Assembly: GCA_964535775.1 (NCBI GenBank) | Contig: CAZHTV010000002.1 | Location: 1-41,977, forward strand | Source: an uncultured Thermoplasmata archaeon | Lineage (GTDB): Archaea; Thermoplasmatota; Thermoplasmata; UBA10834 | Direction of reading: 5' to 3' | DNA length: 41,977 nucleotides | The notes under the pieces: generated by a model | What the model saw: only the letters and a program-made list of their open reading frames with translations | The model's database searches: none | What the model was told of the DNA's origin: nothing | Shown here: piece after piece, positions 1 to 32,876 of the stretch | Numbering within the stretch: position 1 is the stretch's first letter | Layout: each line of letters starts with the position of its first letter | Made by a program: the position numbers and the translations under genes

Positions 1-1116
1 TTGGACGTCCCCACCCAGGAGAAGGAGGTCGCAGAGCATCTCAACGAGTTCCTTCAGGACGAGGGTGTCGAATCAAAGCTCAGGAAGGTCGAGAAGGACA
101 GGCCAAACGTCATCGCGGCTGTGAGGGGTTCGCGCAGCGGAAAGAGCCTGATGCTGAACGGCCACACGGACACTGTGCCGGCCTACGACATGAACATACC
201 GCCGTTCCGGCCCGACGTGAGGAACGGCCGTCTGTACGGCCGCGGCTCGTTGGACATGAAGGGCGGCCTCGGGGCGATGGCGATGGCTTTGGTGGCCATC
301 GAGCGCTCGAAGGTCGAGCTGTATGGAAACCTCTATCTGGCCGCCGTCGTGGGCGAGGAGCGCAGGAGCGAGGGCACGGAGGATCTCATACTGAGAGGCC
401 CGAAAGCGGACATGGCTATTGTAGGCGAGCCGACGGGCCTTGAGATACAGCCGTCCCACAGGGGTCTGGAATGGCTCGAGGTGCATTTCTACGGAAAGGC
501 CGCTCACGGTGGACAGGCGGACAGAGGGGTCAATGCGATATCGATGGCTGCGAGGTTCGTGCGCGAGGTCGAGGACGAGCTGCTCCCGAAGCTGAGGGCG
601 CGCAAGGCGAAGCATACCCTGCCTCCGACCCTCAACCTGGGGGTCATCGAAGGCGGCCAGCAGCCGAGCTCCGTGGCCGACCACTGCGTGGTCAAGGTCG
701 ACAGGAGATGGGTGCCCGAGGAAACGCTGCAACAGGTTTTCGAGGAGATATACCAGATCTTCGACAAGCTGAAGAAAGAGGACCCGAGGTTCAGGGCGGA
801 GCTGAAGCGGGATCCCGCCAACATGAAGACGATGACGCACGTGCCGAACGTCGTCAGCACGGACCACAGGCTCGTGGTATCCCTTAGCCGGGCGGTCAGG
901 GATGTGACCAAGCGGCCCGCGAAGGTCACCACCTTCTGGGGATGGACGGATGCCGCGCTCATGACCCACTTCGGCAAGATGCCAACTGTCGTCTTCGGCC
1001 CTGGGGGCGCGGGCGCGCATTCAAGGGTGGAGTATGTCCTTGTCGATGATCTCGTGCGGTGCGCTCACGTCTATTCGATGACCGCCCTGGACATATGCAG
1101 GACAGGCGCTCGCTAG
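1..1116 (+). CDS. M20 family metallopeptidase/deacylase (ArgE/DapE/LysK-like), probably 5' truncated by the window edge
   Basis: The ORF runs from base 1. The translation carries M20 hallmarks: LNGHTDTVP, GRGSLDMKGG, VVGEE and an inserted dimerisation domain. Family members usually have more N-terminal residues, so the TTG at position 1 is unlikely to be a real start. Confidence 0.8.
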   Translation: MDVPTQEKEVAEHLNEFLQDEGVESKLRKVEKDRPNVIAAVRGSRSGKSLMLNGHTDTVPAYDMNIPPFRPDVRNGRLYGRGSLDMKGGLGAMAMALVAIERSKVELYGNLYLAAVVGEERRSEGTEDLILRGPKADMAIVGEPTGLEIQPSHRGLEWLEVHFYGKAAHGGQADRGVNAISMAARFVREVEDELLPKLRARKAKHTLPPTLNLGVIEGGQQPSSVADHCVVKVDRRWVPEETLQQVFEEIYQIFDKLKKEDPRFRAELKRDPANMKTMTHVPNVVSTDHRLVVSLSRAVRDVTKRPAKVTTFWGWTDAALMTHFGKMPTVVFGPGGAGAHSRVEYVLVDDLVRCAHVYSMTALDICRTGAR

Positions 1117-2723
1117 CAGACGCTCGGAGAATGCCTGAGGATTTGGCCCGCCCGCTCCTTGGTGTGTTTCCCGCGGTCTATCGTCAATGCCCCGTTCACC
1201 AGCACATGACTGATGCCTTCGGGATAGGCATGTGAATGTTCGAACGTGGCCTTGTCGCGCACCCGCTTCGGGTCGAAGACCACGATGTCAGCCCTCATGC
1301 CACGGGCTACTATGCCTCTGTCCTTCAGCCCGATCCTCTCCGCGGGCAGGGAGGTCATCTTCCTCACGGCCTCCTCCAACGAAATCAGCCCAGTTTCGAG
1401 CGCATAGCGTCTGAGGACTCTCGGGAATGTGCCGTAGGCTCTGGGGTGCGATGCGGTCTCGGCCATCGGGCCGTAGGGCGCCTCAGCCTCTCCGTCCGAG
1501 CCTATGGACGCCAGGGGGTGGGCGATGACCTTGGCGACGTCGTCCTCCGACATCTCATGGAAGACCGCGCCCGCTCTCAGCTCCTCATCGACCATGATGT
1601 CCAAGGCCGCTTCGGCGGGGTCGCTGCCAAGCTGGAGCGCTATTTCCGCCACCGACTTGTTCTCGAAACGCCGATACTTGTCGCTCCTGAGGCCTATCAC
1701 GCATATGTTCTCCCAACCGTCCTCGGCAGCGATTGCCTCCCAGTCATCGGAGGGGGTAATCATCTGCTCCTTCGCTTTCTCCCTCGTCTGCGAGTCTTTC
1801 AAGCGGGCGATGATCTCCTCCTTGCTCCCCTCCCTCACCCAGGGAGGCAGTATGGTGTCCAGGGTTGTGCAGGACGCAGTGTACGGATAGACGTCGAAGG
1901 CGACGTCGACGCCTGATCTCCTCGCATCCTCTATCATCCTGATAGTCTGCTGGACCATTCCCCAGCAGCTCTTCCCGCAGGCCTTGTGATGTGATATCTG
2001 GACGCGTGTGCATGCCTTGCGGCCGATGTCTATCGCCTCTGCGACCGCCTTCTGCAACGTCCTCCCCTCGCCTCTGATGTGGCTGGCATAGAACCCACCG
2101 AGGGATGCCGACACCGCAGCCAAGGCCACGAGTTCATCAGTATCAGCATAGCACCCAGGGGCGTAGATGAGTCCCGATGAGAGCCCAAAAGCGCCTTGGA
2201 GCATCGCATCCGCCAGCAGATGCTTCATCTCGGACATCTGGCCCTCGGAAGGTTTTCTGTCACAGCCACCCATCACCGACTCCCTCAGGTTGCTGGCGCC
2301 AACGAGACACGCGACATTGACCGAGGTCGGGAGGTTCGAGAGCCTCAGGAAGTACTCATCCAATGTGGTCCAGTCGACTCTCACATAGAGCGGCTTCGCC
2401 AGGTCGATGAGCGACTCGCGCGCCAAGCCGAGGGCAGGTGCGGGCGAGCCACCGCAGTTGCCCACGAGCTCGGTCGTCACGCCCTGCCTGATCTTGCTCT
2501 CGGCCAGCGGGTTCGCGAGAAGATGTATCTCCGAATGCGAGTGTATGTCTATGAACCCAGGACAGACCACCATATCTGACGCGTCAATCACGACGCTCGC
2601 CCTCGCCTCTGACTGCTTGTAGATGCCTGCGATCTTGGAATCGTCCACAGCGACGTCCCTGGGGACGCGCCTCGCGCCCGTTCCGTCTATGAGGGTGCCG
2701 CCCTTGATGAGAATGTCGTGCAT
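1113..2723 (-). CDS. N-acyl-D-amino-acid deacylase (D-aminoacylase) family amidohydrolase
   Basis: 536-aa ORF. The N-terminus (MHDILIKGGTLIDGTG...PGFIDIHSHSE) has the HxH metal motif, and length and layout fit the D-aminoacylase family. GAGGTGA lies 3 nt upstream of the ATG. Confidence 0.8.
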   Translation of the reverse strand: MHDILIKGGTLIDGTGARRVPRDVAVDDSKIAGIYKQSEARASVVIDASDMVVCPGFIDIHSHSEIHLLANPLAESKIRQGVTTELVGNCGGSPAPALGLARESLIDLAKPLYVRVDWTTLDEYFLRLSNLPTSVNVACLVGASNLRESVMGGCDRKPSEGQMSEMKHLLADAMLQGAFGLSSGLIYAPGCYADTDELVALAAVSASLGGFYASHIRGEGRTLQKAVAEAIDIGRKACTRVQISHHKACGKSCWGMVQQTIRMIEDARRSGVDVAFDVYPYTASCTTLDTILPPWVREGSKEEIIARLKDSQTREKAKEQMITPSDDWEAIAAEDGWENICVIGLRSDKYRRFENKSVAEIALQLGSDPAEAALDIMVDEELRAGAVFHEMSEDDVAKVIAHPLASIGSDGEAEAPYGPMAETASHPRAYGTFPRVLRRYALETGLISLEEAVRKMTSLPAERIGLKDRGIVARGMRADIVVFDPKRVRDKATFEHSHAYPEGISHVLVNGALTIDRGKHTKERAGQILRHSPSVC

Positions 2724-2850
2724 TCGTCACCTCTTGAAGGAAGCTGTCTTGGAGTGCAAGCCCGGGAAGGCCAGAGTGGCTATTGAAGGTTTCTGGTCTC
2801 ACGGCGTCACCGGTCACGGTTTATATCCCAAGCCGCCATTTGGGAATCGG

Positions 2851-3738
2851 ATGGCGCGCCAGTTCGTGTTCCAGAAGTACCACGGCTGCGGTAACGATTT
2901 CATCATCGCGGACGAGATGCACGGAAAGGTCACGCCTGACAAGGAGCGCAGCAGGCTCGCTAAGAGGCTAACAGACCGCAACTTCGGGATCGGAGCGGAT
3001 GGCGTCATATTCATCGAACGCGCAAAGGGTGCCGATGGGTCCATGCGCCTGTTCGAGCCCGCGGGCAACGAGGCCGACATGTGCGGCAACGGGATCCGAT
3101 GTGTCGGTGCGTATCTCATGGAGAAACTAGGGAAGAACTCAGTCAGTGTTCTCTCGAAGGATGGCGTGAAGAGCATCGGCAGAATAGGCCGCATGTACTC
3201 GGTCGAGATGGGCAAGGTGCGGACGACCGGCCGCCACCTGAAGGCATATTATGCGGGCGTGAAGCGCGATTCAGACTCTATGATGAACTTGCGCATCAGA
3301 GCAGGGGGAAGGACCTTGGTCGGGGCGCTTGTGAACTCCGGGGAACCCCACTTCGTGACCAGGACCCGAAGCCTCGGATCATTGAGGGTGTCTGAGATAG
3401 GGGACGCCGTCAACGCCAAGAAACACCTGTTTCCCCGAGGCGTCAACCTCAACTTCGTTCAGGTGATCGCTCCGCACGCGATAAGGATCAGAACCTATGA
3501 AAGGGGCGTTTATGACGAGACGCTCGCTTGCGGCACTGGCGCGACCGCGAGCGCTGCGGTGGCGGTCATGCTAGGATGGGTGCGCCAAGGACCCTTGACC
3601 GTGATCACCAAAGGAGGCGGCATCAAGATCAAGCTTGAGGATGACGGCACAGCCATCATGTCCGGCCCAGCTGTGCGCGTGTTCGAAGGCGTATCGGAGG
3701 AGCCACCCCGACGTGGACGACGCCTCAGCTGCCCATGA
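2851..3738 (+). CDS. dapF: Diaminopimelate epimerase
   Basis: From the ATG at 2851 (MARQFVFQKYHGCGNDFII). Both catalytic Cys motifs are present (MCGNGIRC and ACGTGATA), plus SGEPHFV. The upstream part of ORF 2623.. overlaps the divergent gene and is taken as spurious. A TATA-like GGTTTATATCCC sits at about 2816-2830. Confidence 0.85.
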   Translation: MARQFVFQKYHGCGNDFIIADEMHGKVTPDKERSRLAKRLTDRNFGIGADGVIFIERAKGADGSMRLFEPAGNEADMCGNGIRCVGAYLMEKLGKNSVSVLSKDGVKSIGRIGRMYSVEMGKVRTTGRHLKAYYAGVKRDSDSMMNLRIRAGGRTLVGALVNSGEPHFVTRTRSLGSLRVSEIGDAVNAKKHLFPRGVNLNFVQVIAPHAIRIRTYERGVYDETLACGTGATASAAVAVMLGWVRQGPLTVITKGGGIKIKLEDDGTAIMSGPAVRVFEGVSEEPPRRGRRLSCP

Positions 3739-5074
3739 GCTTCAGCACTTCCTCAGCGGTCTTGAGGGTCCCGTCGATCTCTTCTTCGGTGTGCGCTATT
3801 GAGGTGTAGAGTGGCTTGTCGGGGTGATAGTAGATCCCGCGGGCGAACATCCCGAAGTCGAACATCTCGCGCCTCTTGGTGTCGCACAGCAGAGCATCTC
3901 TGTAGTCGCATATCTTCAGCTCTCCAAACACGATGTTGAAGGTCGACCCAGGGCCAACAGCCTGCGCCGCGATGCCGAGCCGGGAGAACAGGTCGTTCAG
4001 GCCGTCCTGCAACCTGGCAGTTATCCGGTTCAGGTACGGGTAAGTCTCCGGCTCCTCGAGGACGTCCAGGGTCGCCATGCCCGCGGCGAGCACGGTCGGA
4101 TGCCCGTTGAAGGTGCCACCGTGGAACACCCTCTGGTCCTTGGCGCGCGTGGCGGGGTTCACCACGTCCATTATGTCCTTCCTGCCAAGGAACGCTCCGC
4201 ACGGAAACCCTCCGCCCATGATTTTCCCCACGCACATCATATCAGGCGTGACGCCGAACATGGTCTGCGCACCACCGAGCCTGTCCATCCTGAAGCCCGA
4301 CATGACCTCGTCGAAGATCAGTATGATGTCCAGCTCGTCCGTTACCTCGCGGATGGCCTTGAGGAACTCCGGGTCCGCGGCCACGAACCCCCTCTGCACC
4401 GGCTCCATGATGAGAGCCGCAAGGTCGTTCTTGTGCGCCTTGAGCAGCCTGACGGAGCTCTCGATGTCGTTGAAGGGCAGCACCTGCACGCTCTGGAGCG
4501 TGTAATCCGATGTGCCGAGGGAGCACGAGACAGACTGGGGGGCAACCTCCGGCCCGGCGACCTCCTCCGACGGCGTGAGGCTGACCAACGCCTCATCGTA
4601 GCAGCCGTGGTAGTGTCCCTCGAACTTCGCGACCCTGTTCTTCCGCTTATACCCTCTAGCAACCCTCAGCGCGTGCATCGTCGCCTCCAGGCCCGAGTTG
4701 GTGAACCGCGCCCTCTCCGCGCAGGGGAATATCCTGTTCAGGCGCGCGGCCATCTTGGCCTCGAGCTCGTGAGGGGGACCGAAGATCGTGGTGCCGTCCT
4801 TCTCGAGCTGGTCGTGGATCGCCTTGATCACCCTCGGATGGCCGTGCCCGAGGATCAGGGGCCCGAAACACAGCATGTAGTCTATGTACTCGTTCCCGTC
4901 CAGGTCCCAGAGGTGCGACCCCTTGGCCCTCGAGGCATAGATTGGGTAGGGCTTGTGGAACTTCACGTTGCCCGTGACGCCCCCGGGGAGGTGATCGCTC
5001 GCCTCATGGAACCACTGGCGGCTCTTCTTCGTCCTGGCCTCGTATTCGGCGATGGGGTTGAATCCGGCGCACAT
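3725..5074 (-). CDS. Class III PLP aminotransferase, glutamate-1-semialdehyde aminomutase-like (non-canonical HemL paralogue; candidate beta-amino-acid transaminase)
   Basis: 449 aa. It has DEVMSGFR, a PLP-lysine motif (CVGKIMGGGFPCGA) and FNGHP. The N-terminal motif PGGVTGNVKF differs from the HemL PGGVNSPVRAF motif as I recall it. It is the last gene of a tight operon, 7 nt after the CoA-transferase B gene. Confidence 0.8.
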   Translation of the reverse strand: MCAGFNPIAEYEARTKKSRQWFHEASDHLPGGVTGNVKFHKPYPIYASRAKGSHLWDLDGNEYIDYMLCFGPLILGHGHPRVIKAIHDQLEKDGTTIFGPPHELEAKMAARLNRIFPCAERARFTNSGLEATMHALRVARGYKRKNRVAKFEGHYHGCYDEALVSLTPSEEVAGPEVAPQSVSCSLGTSDYTLQSVQVLPFNDIESSVRLLKAHKNDLAALIMEPVQRGFVAADPEFLKAIREVTDELDIILIFDEVMSGFRMDRLGGAQTMFGVTPDMMCVGKIMGGGFPCGAFLGRKDIMDVVNPATRAKDQRVFHGGTFNGHPTVLAAGMATLDVLEEPETYPYLNRITARLQDGLNDLFSRLGIAAQAVGPGSTFNIVFGELKICDYRDALLCDTKRREMFDFGMFARGIYYHPDKPLYTSIAHTEEEIDGTLKTAEEVLKLMGS

Positions 5075-5081: not shown

Positions 5082-5849
5082 TCACCCCAGGTATATGCGC
5101 TCAGGGTCGAGAGCGCGCAGAGCCATTATCTCCCTCTCGGTGGGCGCAGGTGTCTGCTCCAGCTCGTCGGCGACCTTGAGCTTCCAGGGCGTGTTCTCCT
5201 GGACCTTCTCCACGGTCACACCCGGGTGAAGGGACACGAGGGTCATCTCGCCCGTGACATCGTCGAACCTGAGCGTGCCGAGGTTGGTGATGACAGCGTA
5301 AGGTCCCCCTCCCTGGAGCTTGAGCTGCCGCCACTTCTCCTTTCCGTCTATGAAGCCCGGGCTTGTGAGGAAATCAACCTTCTCGACGAACCTCCTCTTC
5401 TCGTGCGGGGTGATGACTATGATCTTCTTCACGTTCGATGCGATGTCGCACGCGCCCCCGCTCCCGGGGAGCCTGACCTTCGGCGTCTTGTAGTCGCCGA
5501 TCACGGTCGAGTTGATGTTCCCGTACTTGTCGATCTGCGCCCCTCCGAGGAACCCGACATCTATCCTGCCGCCCTGGAGGTAGTACGAGAACTGCTCGTA
5601 CATGGAGCACACGCTCTTCGCGCCCGTAACAAGGCACGGGTCGCCGATGGACAGGGGCATCCGGGTCGGGTTCGACCCGACGGCCCCGGACTCGTAGACC
5701 ATGTTCAGGTTCGGCGCCTGCAGCTTCCTGGCTAGGTTTGCCGCCAGGTTCGGAACCCCGACGCCGACCAGGACCGACTCGTGGTCCTTCAGTTCCCTTG
5801 CCGCTACAACGACCATCAGCTCGCTGGATGAGTAATCCACCATCATCAC
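5082..5849 (-). CDS. Family I CoA-transferase, subunit B (glutaconate/3-oxoacid CoA-transferase-like)
   Basis: 255 aa. The translation reads LVGVGVPNLAANLA...MVYESGAVG, with the ESG glutamate at residue 53 in the position of the catalytic Glu of beta subunits. Confidence 0.8.
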   Translation of the reverse strand: MMMVDYSSSELMVVVAARELKDHESVLVGVGVPNLAANLARKLQAPNLNMVYESGAVGSNPTRMPLSIGDPCLVTGAKSVCSMYEQFSYYLQGGRIDVGFLGGAQIDKYGNINSTVIGDYKTPKVRLPGSGGACDIASNVKKIIVITPHEKRRFVEKVDFLTSPGFIDGKEKWRQLKLQGGGPYAVITNLGTLRFDDVTGEMTLVSLHPGVTVEKVQENTPWKLKVADELEQTPAPTEREIMALRALDPERIYLG

Positions 5850-5856: not shown

Positions 5857-6786
5857 TCACACGCTCCCGTAGTTCACGGGCGCGCTGTAAGCCGCCTTCG
5901 GGAGCAGCTTCAGCACCTTCTCCGTGGGCAGTCTCTTCACGTACTGCTGCCTGTCCTCGACGCCGTAGACCCACTCCTCCATCCATTTCACGGTGGAGTC
6001 GTGCTCCTTCGTTATCTCGTCCCACTGCATGTAGAACTCGTTATCCCTGTCGTAGTACCCCTGCACATATGAGGGATGGCACGCCCAGGGCTCACGGACG
6101 ACTGCGTGAACGACGAAATCCGGTATCAGCGTCCTGTTGGGATCCGACCTGATCAGGGACTCGTCCACGATTTCCTCTGCGCTTACTATGACCTTCTTGG
6201 AGGCGAAGGCCGTATCCTTCTGCTCCCCGATGATCCCCCAGACGTGCGAGTTGCCGTTCGCGTCGCATCTCTGCACGTGGACGACCGCAACATCCGGTTT
6301 GAGGGGAGGGACGACAGATATCTCGTCACCCGTGTAGGGGTCCTTGACAGTGCGTATATTCGGGTTCTGAGGAGGCAGGTCGGAGCCTGTGTTGGTCCTC
6401 ATCGGGAGGAATGGCATGTTGGTCGCGCCGGCAAAGAGCCTGCCCGACATCCCGAAGTGAGAGTACTCCTCTATCTCGATCTTGTTCGGCTGCCCCTTCT
6501 CGAAGGCGCGCCTGAAGCATCTCAGGGAACCAACTCCGGGATTGCCGGCATAGCTGAAGACGAGCTTCTTGCAGCAGCCCGCGGCGATCATCTGATCGTA
6601 GATTATGTCCGGTGTCGCCCTGCAGAGCGTCAGGTCCCTACGCTTCTGCCTGATTATCTCGTGCCCAGCTGCGAACGGTATCATGTGCGTGAACCCGGCG
6701 AGGTACACGGCATCCCCGTCCCTTACGAACCTGGACACGGCCTCCTTCATCGTTGTCAACTTGCCTGCTTCCATCTTCTCATCCAC
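5857..6786 (-). CDS. Family I CoA-transferase, subunit A (GctA-like)
   Basis: 309 aa. The N-terminus (KLTTMKEAVSRFVRDGDAVYLAGF...) and overall length fit the GctA-type alpha subunit. There is a 7-nt gap to the subunit B gene. Confidence 0.8.
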   Translation of the reverse strand: MDEKMEAGKLTTMKEAVSRFVRDGDAVYLAGFTHMIPFAAGHEIIRQKRRDLTLCRATPDIIYDQMIAAGCCKKLVFSYAGNPGVGSLRCFRRAFEKGQPNKIEIEEYSHFGMSGRLFAGATNMPFLPMRTNTGSDLPPQNPNIRTVKDPYTGDEISVVPPLKPDVAVVHVQRCDANGNSHVWGIIGEQKDTAFASKKVIVSAEEIVDESLIRSDPNRTLIPDFVVHAVVREPWACHPSYVQGYYDRDNEFYMQWDEITKEHDSTVKWMEEWVYGVEDRQQYVKRLPTEKVLKLLPKAAYSAPVNYGSV

Positions 6787-6791: not shown

Positions 6792-7205
6792 CTATGCTGG
6801 AACGAACTTGAACCCGTACCTGATGACGTCTTCCTCGGTGTATATCTTCCTGAGCTCCGTCCTGACGGGCATGCCGATCTTGACCTCCTTGGGGTCGATG
6901 TCAGCTATCTGTCCTATGACCTTAGGGCCCTCCTCGAGCTCCACGATCGCGACGGGGTACTGTCCCCCTGCCTTCTCCTGCTCCGCGAACTCCGGGGGAG
7001 CCCCGCCTGCGCTTATCAGAACGAACGTGTGCACCTTCCCCTTGCCGCTGAGCTGCGTCTCCTCGAACTCAGAGGAGCCCTGGCACTGCTTGCACACGCC
7101 CTTTGGGGGGAAGTTCACGGCTCCGCACTTCTTGCACTTGTAGCCTATCATCTTGTATCGCTGGGGTATGGTCCTCCAGTACATCGGGACTGAAACATGC
7201 GCCAT
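6792..7205 (-). CDS. DUF35 OB-fold/zinc-ribbon protein (thiolase-associated scaffold)
   Basis: 137 aa. It has a C-x2-C-x10-C-x2-C ribbon (CKKCGAVNFPPKGVCKQC) followed by an OB-fold-like C-terminus. Its position after thiolase and HMGCS-like matches the archaeal trio. Confidence 0.85.
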   Translation of the reverse strand: MAHVSVPMYWRTIPQRYKMIGYKCKKCGAVNFPPKGVCKQCQGSSEFEETQLSGKGKVHTFVLISAGGAPPEFAEQEKAGGQYPVAIVELEEGPKVIGQIADIDPKEVKIGMPVRTELRKIYTEEDVIRYGFKFVPA

Positions 7206-7216: not shown

Positions 7217-8233
7217 TCACCGGATAGCTCCCTTGAGCTTCAGGTACTTGACATAGTCAATGTACTCCTTCCTGTCGGTCTCTGTCTGAACCCTGACCGT
7301 GGCCTTCTTGTCGGTCACGACCGTGAAGCTCAGCGCGTCACTGCCGGCTCCCGAGCCGTATGATATGACCATGATCTTGTCTCCGACCTTCGCCGCGTCG
7401 AGTGCAGATGCCAGTGCGACGGGGACGGAGGCCGCTCCCAGATCCCCGAGGGATTTCGAAACCAGGCTCGAGGCGAGCTGTGCGTCTGTGAACTGGAGCC
7501 TGGCCGCAACCGTGGCCGGGACCCTTGCATCCGGCTGCTGGATGACCACATGCTGGTACTCGTCGGGCTTCCTGCCCAGCCTCTTCAGGAGCGCCAATCC
7601 TGCCCTGGTCGTGTTCAGGACGACGGAACCCTCGGCGAACTTCTTCACGTTCAGGTCGTGCACCAGGGGATCGTCCTTCGGCTTGAACCTCTCTCCGAAA
7701 TGCTCGCTGGCATACGAGACGTGTCCTTCGAGCTCGGCGATGAGGTCGTCAGATGACATCACAAACGCAGCCGCTCCGGCCCCGAATGCGTGTTCCACGG
7801 TATCCCACATGCTCGCCCTGGGCGCGTCGGCCGCTGCTGCCACGGCCTTTCCCGAGGTGGTCGCCAATACGTGTTCGAAGGCAGCCAGCATGGCCTCGGT
7901 ACCGGCCCTCGTTGAACTTGTGTGATCTGATGTGAAGGCGGTGCTGGGCATTCCAACGCTCACCAGAACGGTGCCGGAGAGCAGCTTCTCGAGATAGGGG
8001 GCGGACGTCGATGCCAGAGCGAATCTGGTCACCTTGTCCGCCGTCATCGGGACCGACTCGAGCGCCCGTCTGGTGACCTTGGTGACCGCGGTGAGAGCAT
8101 CCTCGTCAAAGCCGAGCACGGACTTCTCGTTAACGCCAGCTGCCGAGAACGACCCCCACGCCTTCATGTACTCTTCACGCTTTATCCTGAGCCTCGGTAT
8201 GTAGACGCCATATCCTGAGATCCCGACTGCCAT
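7217..8233 (-). CDS. HMG-CoA synthase homologue with degenerate active site (pseudo-HMGCS)
   Basis: 338 aa. Family signatures are present: VGISGYGVYIPRLRIK, SYGSGAGSDA and YIDYVKYLKLKG. At the positions aligned with the archaeal motifs GSES / FACKAGT / FHQPN it reads ASTS / SSTRAGT / IQQPD. Confidence 0.8.
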   Translation of the reverse strand: MAVGISGYGVYIPRLRIKREEYMKAWGSFSAAGVNEKSVLGFDEDALTAVTKVTRRALESVPMTADKVTRFALASTSAPYLEKLLSGTVLVSVGMPSTAFTSDHTSSTRAGTEAMLAAFEHVLATTSGKAVAAAADAPRASMWDTVEHAFGAGAAAFVMSSDDLIAELEGHVSYASEHFGERFKPKDDPLVHDLNVKKFAEGSVVLNTTRAGLALLKRLGRKPDEYQHVVIQQPDARVPATVAARLQFTDAQLASSLVSKSLGDLGAASVPVALASALDAAKVGDKIMVISYGSGAGSDALSFTVVTDKKATVRVQTETDRKEYIDYVKYLKLKGAIR

Positions 8234-8239: not shown

Positions 8240-9406
8240 TCACCTCCTCAGGATGGACACTGCGACAGTGCCGCCCGATCCGCCCACGTTGTGGATCAAT
8301 CCCACTTCCGCACCCTTGACCTGCCTGGCCGGCTTCTGGACGGTGCCTCGGAGCTGGTTGAACATCTCATAGGCCATGCCCGTCCCGGTCGAGCCGATCG
8401 GATGACCCTTCGATTTCAGTCCTCCGCTCGCGTTGACCGGTTTGTCGCCAGCTAGCTGCGTGTGTCCCTCCTCCATGAACTGACCGGCCTTGCCCTTCTC
8501 GCAGAACCCCAGGTCCTCGTAGGCAAGCAGCTCGGCAATGGTGAAGCAGTCATGGACCTCGGCGATTTGGACGTCCTTCGGTGAAAGGCCTGACATCTTG
8601 TACGCTGCAGCAGCTGCGCGCTTGGTGCCCTCAAGCGTCACCGTGCTTACCCTGTCGTGGATCGCGAGGAAATCGCTCGCGCCCCCGAAACCGGCGATGT
8701 AGACCGGCGTGTCCGTGTACTGCTTGGCGACCTCGGTGTCGCAGACGAGCACCGCGGACGCTCCGTCCGTCGTAGAACAGCAGTCGAACAGATTGAGGGG
8801 GTCCGCCACGATAGGCCCTTTGATCGCCTGCTCCATGGTGATTTCCCGCTGGAACTGCGCCTTGGGGTTCTGGGCGCCATTCTTGTGATTCTTCACGGCG
8901 ACCATTGACAGGTGTTCCCTCTTGGTGCCGAACTCGTGCATATGTCTCCGGGCCATGAGCGCGTATAGCCCGGCGAAGGTGGTGCCTGCGAGTCTCTCAT
9001 ATTCGGTGTCCCCTGAGACGCCCAGCCAATACTTCTGTTTCATGCCGGAGACGTCCGTCATCTTCTCGACGCCGCCCGCGATAACGACCTTGTGAGCGCC
9101 CGAGAGGATGTCCAAAGCAGCGGAAATGATTGCATATCCGCCAGAGGCACATGCGTTCTCTATCCTCATCGTGTTGATGTGTGTGAGCCCGCAGTACTCC
9201 GTAACGAGGGCAGACATGTTGCCCAGCTGAAACCCGCCAGAGCCGAGATTGCCTATGTACGCCGATCCGATCGACTTGGGGTCTACTCCCTTGTCTACGC
9301 TCGCGGTCATGTCCTTATAGGCCTCGAAGAAGAGCTCCTTGATTCCCTTGTCGGGGAAGTCGCCGTATCTGCTCTGCCCTGCGCCAACGATAGCCACTTT
9401 CTTCAT
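8240..9406 (-). CDS. Acetyl-CoA acetyltransferase / thiolase (archaeal SCP-x-like type)
   Basis: 388 aa. The nucleophile motif ENACASG (Cys86), GHPIGSTGTG and HNVGGSGG are present. GGGAGGT lies 8 nt upstream of the ATG. Confidence 0.85.
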   Translation of the reverse strand: MKKVAIVGAGQSRYGDFPDKGIKELFFEAYKDMTASVDKGVDPKSIGSAYIGNLGSGGFQLGNMSALVTEYCGLTHINTMRIENACASGGYAIISAALDILSGAHKVVIAGGVEKMTDVSGMKQKYWLGVSGDTEYERLAGTTFAGLYALMARRHMHEFGTKREHLSMVAVKNHKNGAQNPKAQFQREITMEQAIKGPIVADPLNLFDCCSTTDGASAVLVCDTEVAKQYTDTPVYIAGFGGASDFLAIHDRVSTVTLEGTKRAAAAAYKMSGLSPKDVQIAEVHDCFTIAELLAYEDLGFCEKGKAGQFMEEGHTQLAGDKPVNASGGLKSKGHPIGSTGTGMAYEMFNQLRGTVQKPARQVKGAEVGLIHNVGGSGGTVAVSILRR

Positions 9407-9680
9407 CCGAAAGACCTCCCGTCAGGCCCCCTCTCAGGACGCGATCGCCCGGACGCCTGCATGTGCGTTCCAGGCGGTCGATTCTGGATGTCTGGAACAG
9501 CGGTTGCTCGAATCAAGGTCAAGCTATTTAACGATTGGCGATTTACACGGGCCCCCAAGCTGCAAACAGACATGCGGTTACGAAAGGGTGCGCGCACAGG
9601 TCAGCGCCCATCCTCGAATCGTACCGCGCAATCCGAGTTCGTAACGCCGTCGCTTTCGACCTGACAAGATGCTAAATACG

Positions 9681-9695
9681 GAATCGTATAATGGG
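9681..9695 (+). promoter_or_regulatory. Candidate TATA box for kamA
   Basis: GAATCGTATAATGGG lies ~40 nt upstream of the ATG at 9732. Confidence 0.4.
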
Positions 9696-9731
9696 TATGA
9701 CCAGGCTGCGGATTGCGTGGAGGCAGTTGCG

Positions 9732-11006
9732 ATGCGCTCGTACAAGGAAGTATCCCTCTGGAAGAACGTCTTAGAGAAGGAATGGGACGATTGGAAGTGG
9801 CAGCTAAGGAACCGTGTCACCACCCTCGAGCAGCTCAAGGAAGTCATCAACCTCACTCCACAAGAGGAGCAAGGAGTCCGCAAGTCGCTCAGGGTCCTCA
9901 GGATGGCAATCAGCCCGTACTTCGCGATGCTGATGGATCCTGACGACCCACACTGCCCCATCAGGATGCAGGCCGTTCCGACCGTGAAGGAGATAGACTT
10001 CAGCGCTTCTGACATGGAGGACCCGCTCTTCGAGGACACGGACTCCCCTACGCACGGCGTCACTCACAGATATCCCGACAGGGTGCTCTTCCTGATCACG
10101 GACATGTGCGGCAACTATTGCAGGCACTGCACACGCAGGAGGTTCGCAGGCCACAAAGACAGACAGGCCGACAGGTCCGCTATCGACGCCTCCATCAAGT
10201 ACATCAAGGAGCACGAGGAGGTCAGAGACGTCCTCCTCTCCGGCGGAGACGGCCTGATGGTTTCAGACGCGATGCTGGAGGACATAATCGAGCGCCTGCA
10301 GGCCATAGACCATGTGGAGATCGTCAGGATAGGAAGCAGGGCTCCGTGCACGCTCCCACAGCGGATAACGCCTGAACTCTGCAAGATGCTGGCGAAACAT
10401 CATCCGATCTGGCTGAACACCCACTTCAATCACCCGAAGGAGATCACTCCTGAGTCCAAACGGGCCGTGGAGATGCTCGCCGACCACGGCATACCCGTCG
10501 GGAACCAATCCGTGCTGTTGAAGGGAATCAACGACTGCCCGACCATCATGAAGAAGTTGTCGCACGAACTCGTCAAGATCAGGTGCAGGCCCTACTACTA
10601 CTACCAGTGCGACCTCTCGAAGGGCATAGAGCACTTCAGGACCGATGTCGCGAAGGGCATCGAGATAGCAGAGGCCCTGAGAGGGCACACTTCTGGATTC
10701 TGCGTCCCGACCTTCATCATAGACGCTCCAGGCGGCGGTGGCAAGATACCAGTGGGTCCCAACTATCTCATCTCGATGTCGGACAAGAGGGTCGTCCTGA
10801 GGAACTACGAGGGGGGCACATTCACTTACCCTCAGCCGAAGGATCGCACGAGCGTCTGCCCGCCCAGCTGCAGGATGTGCGATGACTACAGCAACCTCGA
10901 GAGCAAGGAAGGCGTTGCAGGAGTACTCTCCGGGAACAAGTTGTGCCTCGTCCCCCAGGGCACGCTGCGTGAGGCCAGGCGCAAGGCGTACCGCAAGAAG
11001 AGGTAG
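9732..11006 (+). CDS. kamA: Lysine 2,3-aminomutase (radical SAM, PLP)
   Basis: It is collinear with clostridial KamA from MRSYKEVSLWKNV..WDDWKWQLRNR. It has the CGNYCRHCTRR radical-SAM cluster, HRYPDRVL, IVRIGSR, NTHFNHP and DAPGGGGK. I chose the ATG at 9732 over 9669 because a TATA-like box at 9681-9695 lies between them and the homology starts here. Confidence 0.9.
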   Translation: MRSYKEVSLWKNVLEKEWDDWKWQLRNRVTTLEQLKEVINLTPQEEQGVRKSLRVLRMAISPYFAMLMDPDDPHCPIRMQAVPTVKEIDFSASDMEDPLFEDTDSPTHGVTHRYPDRVLFLITDMCGNYCRHCTRRRFAGHKDRQADRSAIDASIKYIKEHEEVRDVLLSGGDGLMVSDAMLEDIIERLQAIDHVEIVRIGSRAPCTLPQRITPELCKMLAKHHPIWLNTHFNHPKEITPESKRAVEMLADHGIPVGNQSVLLKGINDCPTIMKKLSHELVKIRCRPYYYYQCDLSKGIEHFRTDVAKGIEIAEALRGHTSGFCVPTFIIDAPGGGGKIPVGPNYLISMSDKRVVLRNYEGGTFTYPQPKDRTSVCPPSCRMCDDYSNLESKEGVAGVLSGNKLCLVPQGTLREARRKAYRKKR

Positions 11007-11048
11007 CGTGACTGCTTCGTGACTGGCCTTCTCGGGGCCCTCGCTCCG

Positions 11049-11061
11049 AAAAGGTTAAAAG
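11049..11061 (+). promoter_or_regulatory. Candidate BRE/TATA for the SAM synthetase gene
   Basis: AAAAGGTTAAAAG lies ~45 nt upstream of the ATG at 11103. The same AAAAGG(A/T)T core is seen at the mvk and hmgA promoters. Confidence 0.45.
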
Positions 11062-11102
11062 CGGAAAAGGATTCTTCCGGCCGACCTTTGCGAGATGAGC
11101 CG

Positions 11103-12299
11103 ATGGCTAGGAATATTTTCATTGAGGAACTCAACCAGCTCCCGATCGAGAAGCAAGGTGTGGAATTCGTCGAAAGGAAGGGCGTTGGCCACCCTGACAG
11201 CATTGCGGACGGCCTTGCAGAGAACGTCAGCAGGGCCCTCTGCAAGATGTACATCAAGCTGTACGGGAGGATCCTGCATCACAACACAGACGAGGTGGAG
11301 GTCGTTGGCGGCCAGTCCGCCCCAAAGTTCGGAGGCGGGGCCATACTGGAGCCGTCCTACATACTCCTGGTCGGGAGGGCGACGACCGAGGTCAACGGGG
11401 AGAGACTCCCTTACAGGACCTGCGCCGTCAAGGCAGCGTACGACTACCTTGAGAGGAACTGCAAGCACCTCGACACCGAATGGGGCGTCACCATCGACTG
11501 CCGGATCGGACAGGGCAGCGTCGACCTCAGAGGGGTCTACGAGACCAAGCGCCTCCTGGCAAACGACACATCGTTCGGAGTCGGGTTCGCGCCTTTCAGC
11601 GAGACCGAGACGATCACGCTCGAAACCGAGAAGTACATCAACGGGAAGCTCGGCAGGACGATGCCGGAGCTCGGCGAGGACGTGAAGGTGATGGCCTGTC
11701 GTATGGAGGACCGAATCGACCTGACCATAGCGGTGGCTATGGTCGACTGCAGGCTGTCGAACAAGAACGAGTACAAGAGCTCCATAGAGCAGCTTACGGA
11801 GAGGGTCACAGACTTTGCCCAGAAGTTCACCGATAGGAAGCTGAGGGTTTTCGTGAACACCGCTGACGACTACAAGGGGGACATATTCTACCTGACCGTC
11901 TCCGGGCTGAGCATGGAGAACGGCGACGACGGCTCGGTGGGCAGAGGCAACAGGGCGAACGGTCTGATAACGCCGATGAGACCCATGAGCATGGAGGCCT
12001 CCGCGGGCAAGAACCCAGTGACGCATGTTGGCAAGCTCTACAACATACTGGCGAACCAGGTTGCGAACGACATAGTCAAGGCCGGAAGGGGGGACATCGT
12101 GGAGGTCCAAACGCGCATATTGTCTCAGATAGGGAAGCCGATAGACAGCCCACAGGCGGCGAGTGCGAGGATGATGTACGCCGACAACGTCAACCCGAGG
12201 AAATACGCAAGAGAGGTCGCCGCCCTGTTCGATGAGAAGCTGGCCAATATCACCGGGTTGACGGACAAGATAGTCGCTGGGAAGATATCCGTATTCTAG
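11103..12299 (+). CDS. metK: Archaeal-type S-adenosylmethionine synthetase
   Basis: From the ATG at 11103 ([37 protein letters not shown]), about 398 aa, which is typical of archaeal MAT. The upstream 28 codons of the track ORF are taken as spurious. Confidence 0.9.
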
Positions 12300-12328: not shown

Positions 12329-15300
12329 CTACCTGACTTCCTCTTCCTTCGACTTAAGGATCTTGGCAAGGTCGGTGAGCTCCCCCTCTATGGACTGCAG
12401 CCTCGACCATTCGTCCTCCAGCCTCTGCTCGTCGCGGCGTATCTCCTCCTCCCTCTGAGAGAGCTTGAGATATAGTTCGTCGAGCTCTACCTTCCTGCGT
12501 TCAAGCTCTGTGATGGCCTTCTCGTCCAGTCCCTCGGCCAGTCCCTTCTTCGAGGCCTCGATGTTCTCCCAGAGGTCCTGCACCTCCGCGCGCTCCTTCT
12601 CAAGTTGCTCCATCTCGACAACAACAGTCCTCTCCCGGGTCTCGAGGTCCCTTTCTCGGTCCCTCATGCGTTCCTCAAGACTCTGCAACTCCAGCTCCCT
12701 CCGGACGAGATCGTCCTCGTTGATCTGAGCTGGCTGAGGCCTGGTGAGGGCCGCCGCGTCCCTCGACACCTCTGACACCCTGATCCTCACTTCCTCTTCG
12801 AGCTGCTCCCTCTTGCCCATGAGCTCGAGCCGCCACTTGTCCAGCTCTGCTCTCAGCTGTTCCAAACCTCTCTCCTTCTGGTCCAGGAGGCCCCGTTCCC
12901 TGTCGAGGTCCTCCTGCATGAGCTCGATCTCGGCAATGGTCTCTTCCAGGGCAGAAGTCCGGGCGAATATCTCTTTCTGCTGAGCCGCGAGGGCGTCCCG
13001 CTGTCGGGCGATCTCTTCAAGGACTTCCCCGTACTCACCCAAGGACTTCCCCGCCTCCTCCTCCTTGGTCCTGAAAGCTGCTCTCTGCTTCTCGAACCCC
13101 CTGATCTCCTGGCTCAGTCCGTCCTCACGCTGCTCGACTGCGACCACCCTCTTCTCGAGCTCGTTTGCGAGCTCGAGCGCTGAGGCCTCGTCCGCGCGCA
13201 GGATTTCCTCCTCCGCGACGAGCTTCGCCTCCCGGTCCTCCAGATCCTTCATGGACGCCGCTGTCCGCTCCCTGACAGCCTCCAGTTCCAACCGCAGCTT
13301 ATCGACATCAGCTCCTGCAGCGGCGACAGCTGCCTCCCGTTCGGCAAGAGCGATGTCCCTTCTCGACATCTCCTCCTGCAGCCGAGCTTGTTCGGAGGTC
13401 CTCTTCTCCAGCTCGTCTTTGGTCTTCTCAATCTCGGAAAATGACTGGGCGACCTCGCCTCGTTCGTCCTCAAGGCGCGCCTTCTCGTCCTCGAGCCGGC
13501 CTCTCTCGGTTTTGAGGGCCTCGAAATCACCCTGCAGTCTTGCAGCCCTTCTGTCCAGCTCGACCTGGGCTTCCTGGATGCTCTGTTCTGACTGCTCGGT
13601 TCTCTGACCAAGATCCACCTTCTGGACCTCGAGCGAATGCGCGATAGTCTTCAGCTCTTCGTCTCTGGCACGCAGATTCGTCTGTGATTCGGCGAGCCTG
13701 GATTCGAGGTCCCTGAGCTCCGACTCCTTCGCAGACAGTTGAGACTGAGACAGATTGAGCTCCTCCTTGACCTTCGCGAGGTTGGCTCTCTCCGCATCGA
13801 GGTCGGCGCGTGAGGCGGTGAGCTGTTCCTCCGTCGCACGAAGCTCGCCTTCCTTCGTCAGAAGCCCTGCCTCTGACTCCGCCAGGCGGGACTCCAGCTG
13901 ATTCAGCTGGAGGCCTTTGGACTCCAGGTCCGCCTGGGACTGCCCCAGCTCCTCCTCGGACCTCTTCAGTTCGGCCTCCTTGGTCATCAGTTGTGAATGT
14001 GATTGTGTCAGTTCTGATTCGAGCTTGCCCAGCTCGGACTCCCTCGTCCGCAGGCTGGCCTGGGACTCCTCCAGCTCCTTCTCCATCTTCTTGAGCTCGG
14101 CGCCGCGTTCGTTCAGCCTGGCCTGCGATTCGACGAGTTTCGCCTCGAGCTCCTTCAGCTGCGCCTCCCTTTCCTGAAGGCCAGCATGGGATGCCTTCAG
14201 CTCGGCCTCGGTTCTTCCCAGCTCGTCATGCTTCTTGCCAAGCTGCTGCTCAGCCCTAAGTAGACGGTCTTCTAGCTCCCCTAGCTCGACCTGCTTCGTG
14301 GAGACGCCTTTCGCGGAAGCTGCAACGGTGAGTTCCCTCGCTGAGACGTATTGGTCCTTCTCCTCCAGCTCCTTTGCCCTCTGTTCCAGCTGCGCTTTCG
14401 CCGCCTCGAGGTCCGACCACACGGCCTCGTTCTCCTTGAGGGTCTTGTCCCTCTCCTGCTGCAGATCCTCCCATTCCTTGGCAAGCGACTCGCGCTGCGA
14501 CTCGAGGGTCTGCTTCTCGGTCCTGAGGTTCTCCACCTGCTCAGCAACCGCCTTCTTGGCTGATTGGATGGCGCTCTCAGCATCTGCAAAGGCCTTCTGC
14601 TTCTCGGCTAGTGTGTTCTCCTCCTCGATAATCCTCTGCTCCCGAACGCTCGCCTCTTGCTCGGTGGAGGTCATCTTGCTCCGGAACGCCTCCAAGGATG
14701 CCGACTCCGCCTCGAGCGTCTTTCGCATCGCCTCGAGCTCGGCGAACTTGGACCCATAGTCGCTCTCCAATTTCGCCTTCTCGCTCCTCAGCGATTTGGA
14801 CAGAGCCTCGAGTTCGGACTTCCGCGATTCAAGCGTCGTCTCCCTTTGCCCGAGCTCCGCTGATTTCGATTTCAGTGATTCTGAGATATCATCAAGCTGG
14901 CCCTTCCATTCCTCGAGTTCCGACTGCTGCGAGGTTATCTCCTGTTCCTTCGCCTCGATCTCAGACTTGGATTTCTCCAATGCCTGCTCATGCTCCAAAA
15001 GTTCGCTCCTCTTGGCCTCCAGGGCGTCCCGCTCGCCCTCGGAAGTCGTGAGCTGTTCCTTCAGGAGCGCTTCCCTGTCCTCGAGGCCCGCCTTGGTTTC
15101 ACGCAGTTCCGCGGTAGCCTGGTCCATTCGCTCTTTCTTGACGGCGAGCTCCTTCTCGAGCTGCTCCAATTCCTCCTTCCTCTTGCCGAGATCCCGACGC
15201 ATTCCATCGATGGCGACGCGCTCCTCTGCCATCTTGAGCTCTGAAGCGGCCACATCGCTTGCGCGCTGGTTCAATATGCTCCTCATCTCGTCGACCGAGA

Positions 15301-22715: not shown

Positions 22716-22790
22716 TGGGCCCAACCGGATTCGGACCGGTGACCTCCCGGTTATCAGCCGGGTGCTCCAACCATGCTAAGCTATGGGCCC
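22716..22790 (-). tRNA. tRNA-Ile (anticodon GAU)
   Basis: The reverse complement folds by hand into a cloverleaf: acceptor GGGCCCA/TGGGCCC, anticodon stem CCCGG/CCGGG with loop CUGAUAA, T arm ACCGG-TCCGAAT-CCGGT, discriminator A. There is no encoded CCA and no intron. Confidence 0.9.
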
Positions 22791-23982: not shown

Positions 23983-24813
23983 CTACCTGGCGAACTGGGT
24001 GAACGCCTGGAGTGCGCGCATCGAGTTCTTCGGTATCTTCTTGCTGGAATCCACAGACAAACCCGTCTCGGATATCGTGATCGGTCTTGGAACCGTGTCA
24101 TGAGCCGATCCGCGGAACTTCTCGACCGTGATCCACCTATCGATCTTGTTCGAGACCAGCCGCTTGTGGAGCCGGACCTCGCCCCTGCATATGAATATCT
24201 CGGCCTCCAGCTCGGTGGGGTCGGGCAGGTCCGTGATGACAAGGGCTGTCACGCACGACTCCGATATGAAGCGCAGCAGCGACATGATGGGCGAGGACTG
24301 GTCATCCATCGTCTCGGAGAGCTTCCTGAGCGAAGTGAGCGAATCTATGACCAGACGGTCATAGCGCGCATCCTGGAACTCCTGCTTGAGCATCAGCTGC
24401 AACGACTGGATAGATATCTCCGGTGCGGCCTGCTTTATCGCCTCCGCCCTGCCACCGCCACCCATCTCTCTCAGAACCCCGACGGTCCTCTGCGCGGCAA
24501 CCTCCACAAGCGAGACCCTCTTGCTGAACGCCTTGGCGGCGGGGTGCACGTCCAATATCCTTATCTTCCCCACATCCCAGCCCAGCGCGCGGAAGTTCTC
24601 CCTGATCTCCGTCGGGGGCTCATCGACGGCGACCAGGAGAGACCGCTCGCCGGCCTTCACGCCTTGGTGCAGGAACTGGATCCCCAGAGTGGTCTTGCCG
24701 CTGCCTGTCGTCCCCGACACGACATACGGCCTGCCGACGATCAGCCCTCCCCTCAGCATCTCGTCCAGACCTTCTATGCCCGTGCTCATCCTGCCCTCGC
24801 GTGCCCCGCTCAT
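23983..24813 (-). CDS. Single-domain KaiC-like / RecA-superfamily ATPase
   Basis: 276 aa. It has GIEGLDEMLRGGL, Walker A GTTGSGKTT and Walker B LVIDSLTS. Its ATG overlaps the upstream gene's TGA (ATGA at 24810-24813). Confidence 0.8.
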   Translation of the reverse strand: MSGAREGRMSTGIEGLDEMLRGGLIVGRPYVVSGTTGSGKTTLGIQFLHQGVKAGERSLLVAVDEPPTEIRENFRALGWDVGKIRILDVHPAAKAFSKRVSLVEVAAQRTVGVLREMGGGGRAEAIKQAAPEISIQSLQLMLKQEFQDARYDRLVIDSLTSLRKLSETMDDQSSPIMSLLRFISESCVTALVITDLPDPTELEAEIFICRGEVRLHKRLVSNKIDRWITVEKFRGSAHDTVPRPITISETGLSVDSSKKIPKNSMRALQAFTQFAR

Positions 24814-25760: not shown

Positions 25761-25843
25761 CTGACGCCACCAATCATGCGATGCCTGGAGTTCACACGGC
25801 CTGGCACTTGATTCAGATTGGATATGCTTATATTTTTGCCTGC

Positions 25844-25891: not shown

Positions 25892-25906
25892 ATCAGGAGT
25901 ACACCT

Positions 25907-31666: not shown

Positions 31667-31668
31667 CA

Positions 31669-32852: not shown

Positions 32853-32876
32853 CAATACTCCTCCAGCCCCGAATCC

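Follow-up and report, generated by a model that had tools for sequence, protein, structure and literature searches.

The window analysed here, a 41,977-nucleotide stretch of contig CAZHTV010000002.1 from an uncultured Thermoplasmata archaeon, encodes a homologue of 3-hydroxy-3-methylglutaryl-coenzyme A (HMG-CoA) synthase (HMGCS) in which all four residues of the Glu-Cys-His-Asn (E-C-H-N) catalytic tetrad are replaced. We consider it fairly likely that this tetrad-less protein, hereafter pseudo-HMGCS, is an architectural subunit of a degradative 3-oxoacyl-CoA thiolase complex that acts in the context of a lysine or beta-lysine pathway. More tentatively, the operon that carries it may encode an undescribed B12-independent anaerobic lysine route in uncultured Thermoplasmata, with a trio of thiolase, pseudo-HMGCS and DUF35 protein as its C-C-cleaving enzyme, a proposal that we regard as possible and would not yet call probable. 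The members of the trio are:

7217-8233, minus strand: tetrad-less HMGCS paralogue (pseudo-HMGCS), 338 aa, ATG start, with Thr76/Thr108/Gln232/Asp264 for Glu/Cys/His/Asn
8240-9406, minus strand: SCP2/archaeal-type thiolase, 388 aa, Pfam Thiolase_N/Thiolase_C_1
6792-7205, minus strand: DUF35 protein, the putative bridging subunit, 137 aa, Pfam zf-ChsH2 and OB_ChsH2_C

When all PDB chains are searched with phmmer, the best match of pseudo-HMGCS is the HMGCS of M. thermolithotrophicus (6esq_I; E 2.7e-42, 148 bits), to which it is homologous over its full length (residues 3-337). The alignment pairs ASTSAPY with GSESHPY, SSTRAGT with FACKAGT and VVIQQPD with CVFHQPN. Pairwise, multiple and profile-profile alignments agree in placing Thr76, Thr108 and Gln232 at the Glu, Cys and His columns. 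In the profile-profile comparison, an alignment of 23 sequences of the pseudo-HMGCS family was matched to 14 bona fide HMGCS with hhalign (prob 100, E 4e-84), and the paired columns are T76/E80, T108/C112, Q232/H234 and D264/N266; Glu, Cys and His are not found at the catalytic columns. The first-pass annotation of the window had recognized an HMGCS family member without its catalytic Glu, Cys and His. Both statements hold, and the codons that it cited read as claimed on the nucleotide sequence (8006-8008 ACG, Thr76; 7910-7912 ACG, Thr108; 7538-7540 CAG, Gln232). The fourth tetrad position is also replaced, with Asp264 (codon 7442-7444, GAT) standing for Asn.

The HMGCS fold is retained. The AlphaFold2 model of pseudo-HMGCS has a predicted local distance difference test (pLDDT) score of 90.5, and Foldseek gives it template modelling (TM) scores of 0.91 to the archaeal HMGCS 6et9_I, 0.88 to a PhlA-type protein and 0.86 to MucA. 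The sequence blocks common to the true and the dead members of the family include an N-terminal GYGxYIPxxRI, EKSV..DED, SYGSGAGSDA and a C-terminal YIDY, and their persistence despite the loss of the tetrad fits conserved structural or quaternary contacts. Profile models disagree about the protein. It falls well below the cutoff of TIGR00748 (172 bits, cutoff 353) and just under that of Pfam HMG_CoA_synt_C (25.0 against a threshold of 25.1), and the Pfam scan finds no match to HMG_CoA_synt_N (PF01154), which bona fide HMGCS carry. It does exceed the cutoff of the NCBIfam equivalog NF003274 (256 bits, cutoff 244).

The gene is not in decay. Searching a protein database with pseudo-HMGCS returned 602 clusters at E <= 1e-10, of which the best 120 are 66-100% identical to it and nearly all 338 aa long. 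The named sources among these 120 are metagenome-assembled genomes (MAGs) of Thermoplasmata, Thermoplasmatota or unclassified 'Euryarchaeota', and most of the proteins are labelled 'hydroxymethylglutaryl-CoA synthase'. A survey of these closest homologues for the T/T/Q pattern, which the first-pass annotation had suggested, found Thr76 and Gln232 in all 120, while position 108 is Thr in 110, Ser in 8, Ala in 1 and Gly in 1. The ratio of nonsynonymous to synonymous substitutions (dN/dS), calculated against three orthologues, is 0.10-0.18 for pseudo-HMGCS and 0.045-0.08 for the thiolase, values that are approximate since dS is 1.0-1.8. Pseudo-HMGCS is thus under purifying selection, about twice as relaxed as that on the thiolase. 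It is the fastest evolving member of the trio, with 64-79% identity across orthologues compared with 78-86% for the thiolase and 79-88% for the DUF35 protein. The intact open reading frame (ORF), the nearly uniform length of 338 aa among homologues and a dN/dS of ~0.1-0.18 together rule out a pseudogene.

Tetrad-less HMGCS-like proteins form what by sequence is a large, old group. When 1.84 billion cluster representatives were searched exhaustively with phmmer, 756 proteins reached E <= 1e-10, and only ~17 of the best 150 of these keep E-C-H-N; the remainder are tetrad-less. Among the tetrad-less members of the best 150, the Glu column is mostly Thr and the Asn column mostly Asp, and the Cys column (108; T/S/A/P/L/G) and the His column (232; Q/P/H/Y/D/S) vary freely. 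A neighbour-joining tree unites 16 of the 17 sequences with both Glu and Cys in an exclusive clade, and all tetrad-less proteins, the window protein included, fall outside it. Many of the best 150 homologues are 470-500 aa long, a length that, taken by itself, would suit a fused DUF35 domain like that of a Pseudomonas protein described below. A further tetrad-less HMGCS-like gene, which reads S/E/Q/D at the four columns, was seen at 3964-4962 of a contig (L009) from a Candidatus Helarchaeota MAG, an Asgard archaeon.

Nine distant tetrad-less homologues (38-53% identity) were inspected in their own contigs. A DUF35 gene directly follows the tetrad-less gene in all nine. Directly upstream lies an annotated thiolase in six, a contig-end gene without Pfam data in two, and no listed gene in the last. 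The wider neighbourhoods of five of them contain:

P0123: CoA-transferase A and B
P0134: CoA-transferase and ABC transporter
P0124: 3-hydroxyacyl-CoA dehydrogenase and enoyl-CoA hydratase
P0130: enoyl-CoA hydratase, short-chain dehydrogenase/reductase (SDR) and BcrAD-type activator
P0126: MaoC dehydratases, alcohol dehydrogenase and FAD oxidases

Judged from these gene orders, the tetrad-less protein is a standard middle component in a family of thiolase complexes with degradative functions.

The two partners look intact. The thiolase has its nucleophile Cys86 (ENACASG), His285 (HDCF), His335 (in GHP, from position 334) and NVGGSGG, and the DUF35 protein has a zinc ribbon (C24/C27/C38/C41, CKKC...CKQC) followed by an OB fold. 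The first-pass annotation had named the ENACASG and GHP motifs and the DUF35 partner, all of which were located; the HDCF motif was found in addition. The thiolase is therefore presumed to be the sole catalytic centre of the predicted complex. We infer that the three proteins do form a complex, and that it works in the direction of thiolysis. Pseudo-HMGCS is best seen as its architectural subunit, probably also contributing to the CoA site, because the thiolase site alone remains, all characterized relatives need their partner subunits to be soluble and active, and CoA sits at the interface of three proteins in 6ESQ. The earlier suggestion that the synthase has been reduced to a non-catalytic subunit is thus the best reading of a lost tetrad beside an intact-looking thiolase and a DUF35 protein, and a published tetrad mutant of an archaeal HMGCS forms no HMG-CoA. 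The accompanying description as a thiolase/HMGCS/DUF35 channeling complex is only partly apt: the canonical order of the trio is there, but 'channeling' is probably the wrong word, because a complex with one remaining active site has no intermediate to pass on.

Comparison with characterized systems supports such a role. The archaeal 6ESQ/6ET9 complex has the same three-gene order and the same kinds of thiolase motif as the window trio and is the best match for all three subunits; its HMGCS differs in having an active Glu82/Cys114/His238/Asn270, which pulls the condensation in the mevalonate pathway. In this archaeal complex CoA is bound at the interface of all three proteins (PMC6392133). In PhlACB, described in 2018, PhlA is without the catalytic Cys and Glu and takes no part in catalysis, and yet all three subunits are required (PMC6392133). 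Liao et al. (Nat Commun, January 2026) defined the E-C-H-N tetrad and solved the structure of MucABC (PMC12960953). They reported that an archaeal HMGCS with the four tetrad residues replaced forms no HMG-CoA, and that MucB and the archaeal acetoacetyl-CoA thiolase (ACAT) need their partners, being inactive or insoluble on their own (PMC12960953). The same study found that PfACAT/HMGS-DUF35 of P. fluorescens thiolyses acetoacetyl-CoA and makes neither HMG-CoA nor acetoacetyl-CoA, and that ~1,000 such bacterial loci, termed 'evolutionary intermediates', have no obvious pathway (PMC12960953). Like the window trio, the P. fluorescens system combines a tetrad-less HMGCS, a thiolase with Cys, HDxF and GHx, and a DUF35 module, on which the P. 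fluorescens complex depends. It is bacterial, however, its HMGCS is fused to DUF35 and it has no assigned pathway, whereas the trio of the window is archaeal, encoded by separate genes and joined to a CoA-transferase, an aminotransferase and the lysine 2,3-aminomutase KamA. Two-component systems such as the benzoylsuccinyl-CoA thiolase BbsAB and the Sulfolobus KT/DUF35 pair Saci_1121/1120 also have an SCP2-type thiolase with HDxF that needs DUF35, and they serve specialized pathways of CoA esters, but they have no HMGCS-like third subunit.

A tetrad-less HMGCS-like subunit in a thiolase/DUF35 complex is therefore an already known kind of protein (PhlA in 2018; MucA and PfHMGS-DUF35 in 2026) and the family is very large, so that its treatment as highly unusual in the first-pass annotation does not stand. 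What is new here is an archaeal, unfused trio in an operon with a CoA-transferase and an aminotransferase, with KamA divergently upstream. This context hints at the cleavage of a 3-oxoacyl-CoA derived from beta-lysine, a route for which we found no description.

The likeness to PhlACB (PpATase) and MucABC (SmaATase) raises the question of whether the complex might instead be a Friedel-Crafts C-acyltransferase that works independently of CoA thiolysis. Those enzymes also hold a tetrad-less, HMGCS-like non-catalytic partner and need all three of their subunits. PhlA reads C/G/Q/D at the tetrad positions and so has the Gln and Asp of positions 3 and 4 in common with pseudo-HMGCS, whose scores to PhlA (139 and 132 bits) nearly reach the 148 bits to HMGCS. 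Their thiolase-like subunit, however, is without HDxF, and they acylate phenolic or tetramic-acid acceptors and belong to secondary-metabolite clusters. The window thiolase has HDCF, and because HDxF, whose loss defines the group, is kept, the reading fails. The partners are also far nearer to the archaeal complex, the thiolase scoring 304 bits to 6esq_A against 114 bits to PhlC and the DUF35 protein 108 bits to 6esq_E against 44 bits to PhlB, and no polyketide synthase or nonribosomal peptide synthetase domains were found among the scanned ORFs of the window. We consider such an acyltransferase highly improbable.

The assignment of pseudo-HMGCS to an architectural role does meet a point that counts against it. 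At the former catalytic positions, Thr76 is invariant and Asp264 is conserved at >90% in homologues down to ~37% identity. A mere scaffold would not need this much conservation, which may point to a remaining part in ligand binding or catalysis. A pocket formed by Thr76, Ser107/Thr108, Gln232 and Asp264 might bind or act on the substrate, for example on a cationic amino tail, or might have acquired a new activity, and the cavity of PhlA is continuous with the active site of PhlC (PMC6392133). The protein retains neither a nucleophile nor a general base, the tetrad-less group at large tolerates many residues at positions 108 and 232, and in PhlACB the substrate is contacted by PhlC residues only (PMC6392133). 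That pseudo-HMGCS is not inert is accordingly an improbable alternative to an architectural subunit.

A different question is whether pseudo-HMGCS could be the organism's real and only HMG-CoA synthase, working with unconventional residues. Two genes of the mevalonate pathway lie in the window:

32995-34278, plus strand: HMG-CoA reductase, adjacent and divergent to mevalonate kinase, with a 2 bp overlap
31926-32996, minus strand: mevalonate kinase, adjoining HMG-CoA reductase

With these two enzymes the organism needs HMG-CoA, and an intact HMGCS is thus expected elsewhere in its genome. The window holds no other HMGCS, and no HMGCS trio with an intact tetrad. Genome contigs were scanned with one peptide pattern, a search that is no census of the clade, and yielded at least 5 orthologues of pseudo-HMGCS (64-75% identity), at least 74 true HMGCS and the one Helarchaeota variant; none of these 74 true-HMGCS loci shares an assembly with the five orthologue loci. 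The lack of another HMGCS in the window counts for the sole-synthase alternative, as does the score above the NF003274 cutoff. All four catalytic residues are replaced, however, including the acyl-accepting Cys, and the equivalent quadruple mutant is inactive (PMC12960953). The protein fails TIGR00748 and has no Pfam HMG_CoA_synt_N match, it lies outside the clade that unites 16 of the 17 Glu- and Cys-retaining sequences, and its gene is embedded in an amino-acid/CoA-transferase operon. Given the loss of the tetrad and the mutant data, it is very unlikely that pseudo-HMGCS is the sole working HMGCS. An E-C-H-N HMGCS of another locus (L013), whose G+C (59%) and 'Methanobacteriota archaeon' label resemble those of the window, was considered as a lead to an intact copy in the same genome and set aside, as L013 belongs to the Methanomicrobiales.

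The genomic context points to what the thiolase complex may degrade. The trio is followed by the genes of a CoA-transferase and an aminotransferase, and KamA is divergently transcribed upstream:

5857-6786, minus strand: CoA-transferase subunit A, glutaconate-CoA-transferase type, 309 aa, Pfam CoA_trans, 155 bits to GctA 1poi_A
5082-5849, minus strand: CoA-transferase subunit B, 255 aa, Pfam CoA_trans, 171 bits to 1poi_B
3725-5074, minus strand: HemL-like class-III aminotransferase, 449 aa, Pfam Aminotran_3, with the pyridoxal phosphate-binding Lys284 kept; candidate beta-aminoacyl(-CoA) transaminase
9407-9668, no strand assigned: divergent intergenic region between thiolase and KamA, 262 bp, with the presumed promoters
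9669-11006, plus strand: lysine 2,3-aminomutase of KamA/AblA type, radical S-adenosylmethionine (SAM) enzyme, TIGR03820 599 against a cutoff of 525, 575 bits to 2a5h_A
11019-12299, plus strand: archaeal SAM synthetase (MetK), directly 3' of KamA, Pfam AdoMet_Synthase 544 bits, supplying the radical-SAM cofactor

The six minus-strand genes run in the order thiolase, pseudo-HMGCS, DUF35, CoA-transferase A, CoA-transferase B and aminotransferase, with spacers of 5-11 bp (6 bp between thiolase and pseudo-HMGCS, 11 bp between pseudo-HMGCS and DUF35) that hold Shine-Dalgarno-like GGAGG/GGTGA motifs. An Rfam scan of the intergenic region between KamA and the operon found no riboswitch or other RNA. 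Eight orthologous loci, in which pseudo-HMGCS is 64-79% identical, were compared; they come from Thermoplasmata MAGs of sediment, groundwater and mine samples. Seven of the eight, every locus that extends far enough, keep the six-gene order (L007 stops after DUF35), and KamA and MetK lie upstream in six.

The individual enzymes fit a lysine substrate to different degrees. KamA retains CxxxCxxC, QCDLS and IDAPGGGGK, and the Asp residues of the last two motifs are those that we take to bind the epsilon-amino group of lysine. By its motifs and model scores KamA is a genuine lysine enzyme. A glutamate 2,3-aminomutase in a beta-glutamate route, at which the glutaconate-type CoA-transferase might hint, was considered and rejected, as KamA passes the lysine model, fails the glutamate model (486 against 650) and has both of these Asp residues. 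CoA-transferase B has its catalytic Glu53 in YESG, aligned with the ESG of GctB. The aminotransferase scores below the cutoff of TIGR00713 hemL (382 bits, cutoff 527), and its top PDB matches are glutamate-1-semialdehyde (GSA) aminomutases at 313 bits, with beta-transaminases and the AMT domain of MycA in the same list. A precedent for its proposed activity is Kat, a HemL-like enzyme that accepts only beta-aminoacyl thioesters, belongs to a variant lysine fermentation and is encoded beside a thiolase (Perret et al. 2011; PMC3149608); it is the only known acyl-CoA beta-transaminase (PMC3149608). Kat is likewise HemL-like and class III, has been mis-annotated as GSA aminomutase and has an adjoining thiolase gene. 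Its substrate, however, is a C4 compound, and it comes after KamDE, Kdd and Kce, whose genes are not in the window; the likeness noted here is one of class.

It is this context of KamA, CoA-transferase, HemL-like aminotransferase and thiolase that suggests beta-lysine as the substrate. In the proposed route, KamA would convert lysine to beta-lysine, and the family-I CoA-transferase would activate it to beta-lysyl-CoA. In a Kat-like reaction on this beta-aminoacyl-CoA, the aminotransferase would then yield 6-amino-3-oxohexanoyl-CoA, which the thiolase complex would split with CoA into acetyl-CoA and 4-aminobutyryl-CoA. The CoA-transferase could recycle the CoA of the latter to the next beta-lysine, and free 4-aminobutyrate (GABA) would be released. 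Variants are conceivable in which transamination precedes CoA transfer, or in which the 6-amino group is acetylated (giving 6-acetamido-3-oxohexanoyl-CoA). Each proposed step would run in a thermodynamically easy direction. Such a scheme would do without Kdd, Kce and the B12-dependent 5,6-aminomutase. Neither the window nor the 20-kb orthologous loci yielded Pfam families of beta-lysine 5,6-aminomutase, 3,5-diaminohexanoate dehydrogenase (Kdd) or Kce; of the classical lysine fermentation (KamA-KamDE-Kdd-Kce-Kal/Kat), the lysine 2,3-aminomutase is present in the window. A partial parallel is the beta-lysine catabolism of Pseudomonas B4 studied in the Barker laboratory (EC 2.6.1.65, 3.5.1.51, 3.5.1.63), in which transamination at C3 reportedly gives 3-keto-6-(acetamido)hexanoate, a split between C2 and C3 gives 4-(acetamido)butyryl-CoA, and deacylases finish the route. 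It differs from the scheme proposed here in that N6 is reportedly acetylated first and the cleavage is acetyl-CoA-dependent, giving acetoacetate, with no CoA-transferase and thiolase. To our knowledge, genes have not been assigned to it.

Conserved neighbours lie on the other side of the operon, and two of them could serve the acetylated variant:

2851-3738, plus strand: DapF-like epimerase, Pfam DAP_epimerase 151 bits, convergent with the aminotransferase and in the same place in L001-L003
1113-2723, minus strand: Amidohydro_3 (D-aminoacylase-like) hydrolase, conserved neighbour
1-1116, plus strand: M20 ArgE/DapE-family deacylase, conserved neighbour, its 5' end beyond the window edge

The M20 and Amidohydro_3 proteins could be its deacetylases, and a role of the Amidohydro_3 hydrolase as a pathway deacylase or lactamase is speculative. 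The epimerase, hydrolase and deacylase (window 1-3738; L001 14545-21017; L003 14503-21017), along with an S58 (DmpA-type) peptidase and oligopeptide ABC ATPase/transporter genes that other loci also have beside the operon, resemble a module that handles imported peptides or peptides containing D-amino acids and that might supply the operon with diaminopimelate or lysine. Farther upstream in two loci (L005 4629-5921, L006 5073-6437) there is a second HemL-like aminotransferase, ~35% identical to that of the operon, together with a second Amidohydro_3 paralogue; the same region of L006 has additional ORFs that, judged by eye, are methyltransferase-like.

Several observations weigh against the lysine route. 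Two of the eight loci, L005 and L006, have no KamA nearby. The nearest characterized relative of the CoA-transferase, the glutaconate enzyme, acts on C5 dicarboxylates. The cluster contains no downstream gene of GABA metabolism and no acetyltransferase. Chemically, 6-amino-3-oxo compounds should cyclise to a 1-pyrroline, which favours tight coupling of the steps or the N6-acetylated variant. Literature searches on the proposed intermediates, on a beta-lysine aminotransferase and on lysine, aminomutase or thiolase in Thermoplasmata found nothing relevant.

Some of these points suit another view, in which the substrate of the operon is another beta-amino or 3-oxo acid, such as one set free from imported peptides or some other C5/C6 compound, and KamA is an unrelated AblA-type enzyme for the compatible solute N-epsilon-acetyl-beta-lysine. 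The best model match of KamA is indeed TIGR03820, the AblA equivalog, the operon of L005 and L006 has no KamA beside it, the CoA-transferase is nearest to a glutaconate enzyme, and peptidases, deacylases and an oligopeptide ABC transporter are neighbours. Yet no ablB-type acetyltransferase was found beside KamA or among the scanned ORFs of the window, KamA and MetK are divergently adjacent to the operon in six of the eight loci at 64-79% identity, and beta-lysine is exactly the beta-amino acid that a HemL-like transaminase, a CoA-transferase and a thiolase would need. We judge a different substrate to be unlikely, though it deserves to be kept in mind.

The direction of the reaction may also be questioned. 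The trio might condense, as do the mevalonate complex and the KT/DUF35 fatty-acid synthase of Sulfolobus, and form, for example, a 3-oxoacyl-CoA for subsequent amination. Thiolase reactions are reversible, and the closest structural relatives, 6ESQ and Saci_1121/1120, do condense. Condensation is endergonic, however, and the known condensing complexes rely on a coupled second enzyme, an active HMGCS or a reductase, to draw it forward; with a dead HMGCS site, no such pull exists here. At equilibrium, both the KamA reaction and thiolysis lie on the catabolic side. PfACAT/HMGS-DUF35, moreover, thiolysed acetoacetyl-CoA and made none from acetyl-CoA (PMC12960953). A biosynthetic complex is for these reasons a rather remote prospect, and a degradative thiolase complex remains the reading that we prefer.

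Other features of the window are of separate interest. On the minus strand at 12329-17386, a 1685-aa ORF, whose sole Pfam match is an N-terminal DUF835, stands beside the SAM synthetase and does so in L001-L004 as well, at 44-56% identity. Two tandem KaiC-like ATPase genes (23983-25892, minus strand; 276 and 360 aa) overlap by 4 bp. A 394-aa ORF (30656-31840, minus strand) fuses a cytidylyltransferase-like domain to NTPase_I-T (DUF84, inosine/xanthosine triphosphatase). The only Rfam matches over the window are tRNA genes at 22716-22790 (minus strand) and 29022-29108 (plus strand).

The main interest of the finding lies in the candidate beta-lysine route and in what is probably a systematic mis-annotation, rather than in the lost catalytic residues that the first-pass annotation had flagged as the surprise. 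Hundreds of archaeal and bacterial tetrad-less proteins are labelled 'hydroxymethylglutaryl-CoA synthase', likely because NF003274 accepts the tetrad-less protein (256 against 244), and among the nearest 150 clusters they far outnumber true HMGCS. The mis-annotation is probably systematic and affects mevalonate-pathway calls in MAGs, whose reconstructions may count a dead paralogue as a mevalonate enzyme. In the 2026 model, bacteria that had been freed by the methylerythritol phosphate (MEP) pathway repurposed the archaeal complex; here a mevalonate-using archaeon carries a degenerate paralogous trio, which, if our interpretation is true, would mean that such repurposing has also occurred within the Archaea and not solely in mevalonate-independent bacteria. 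The trio also lends itself to the question of what a catalytically dead subunit does for its thiolase partner. The arrangement of KamA, CoA-transferase, HemL-like aminotransferase and thiolase is a testable candidate for a beta-lysine degradation route in abundant sediment and subsurface archaea, and, if true, would give the orphan tetrad-less HMGCS/thiolase/DUF35 complexes their first physiological role.

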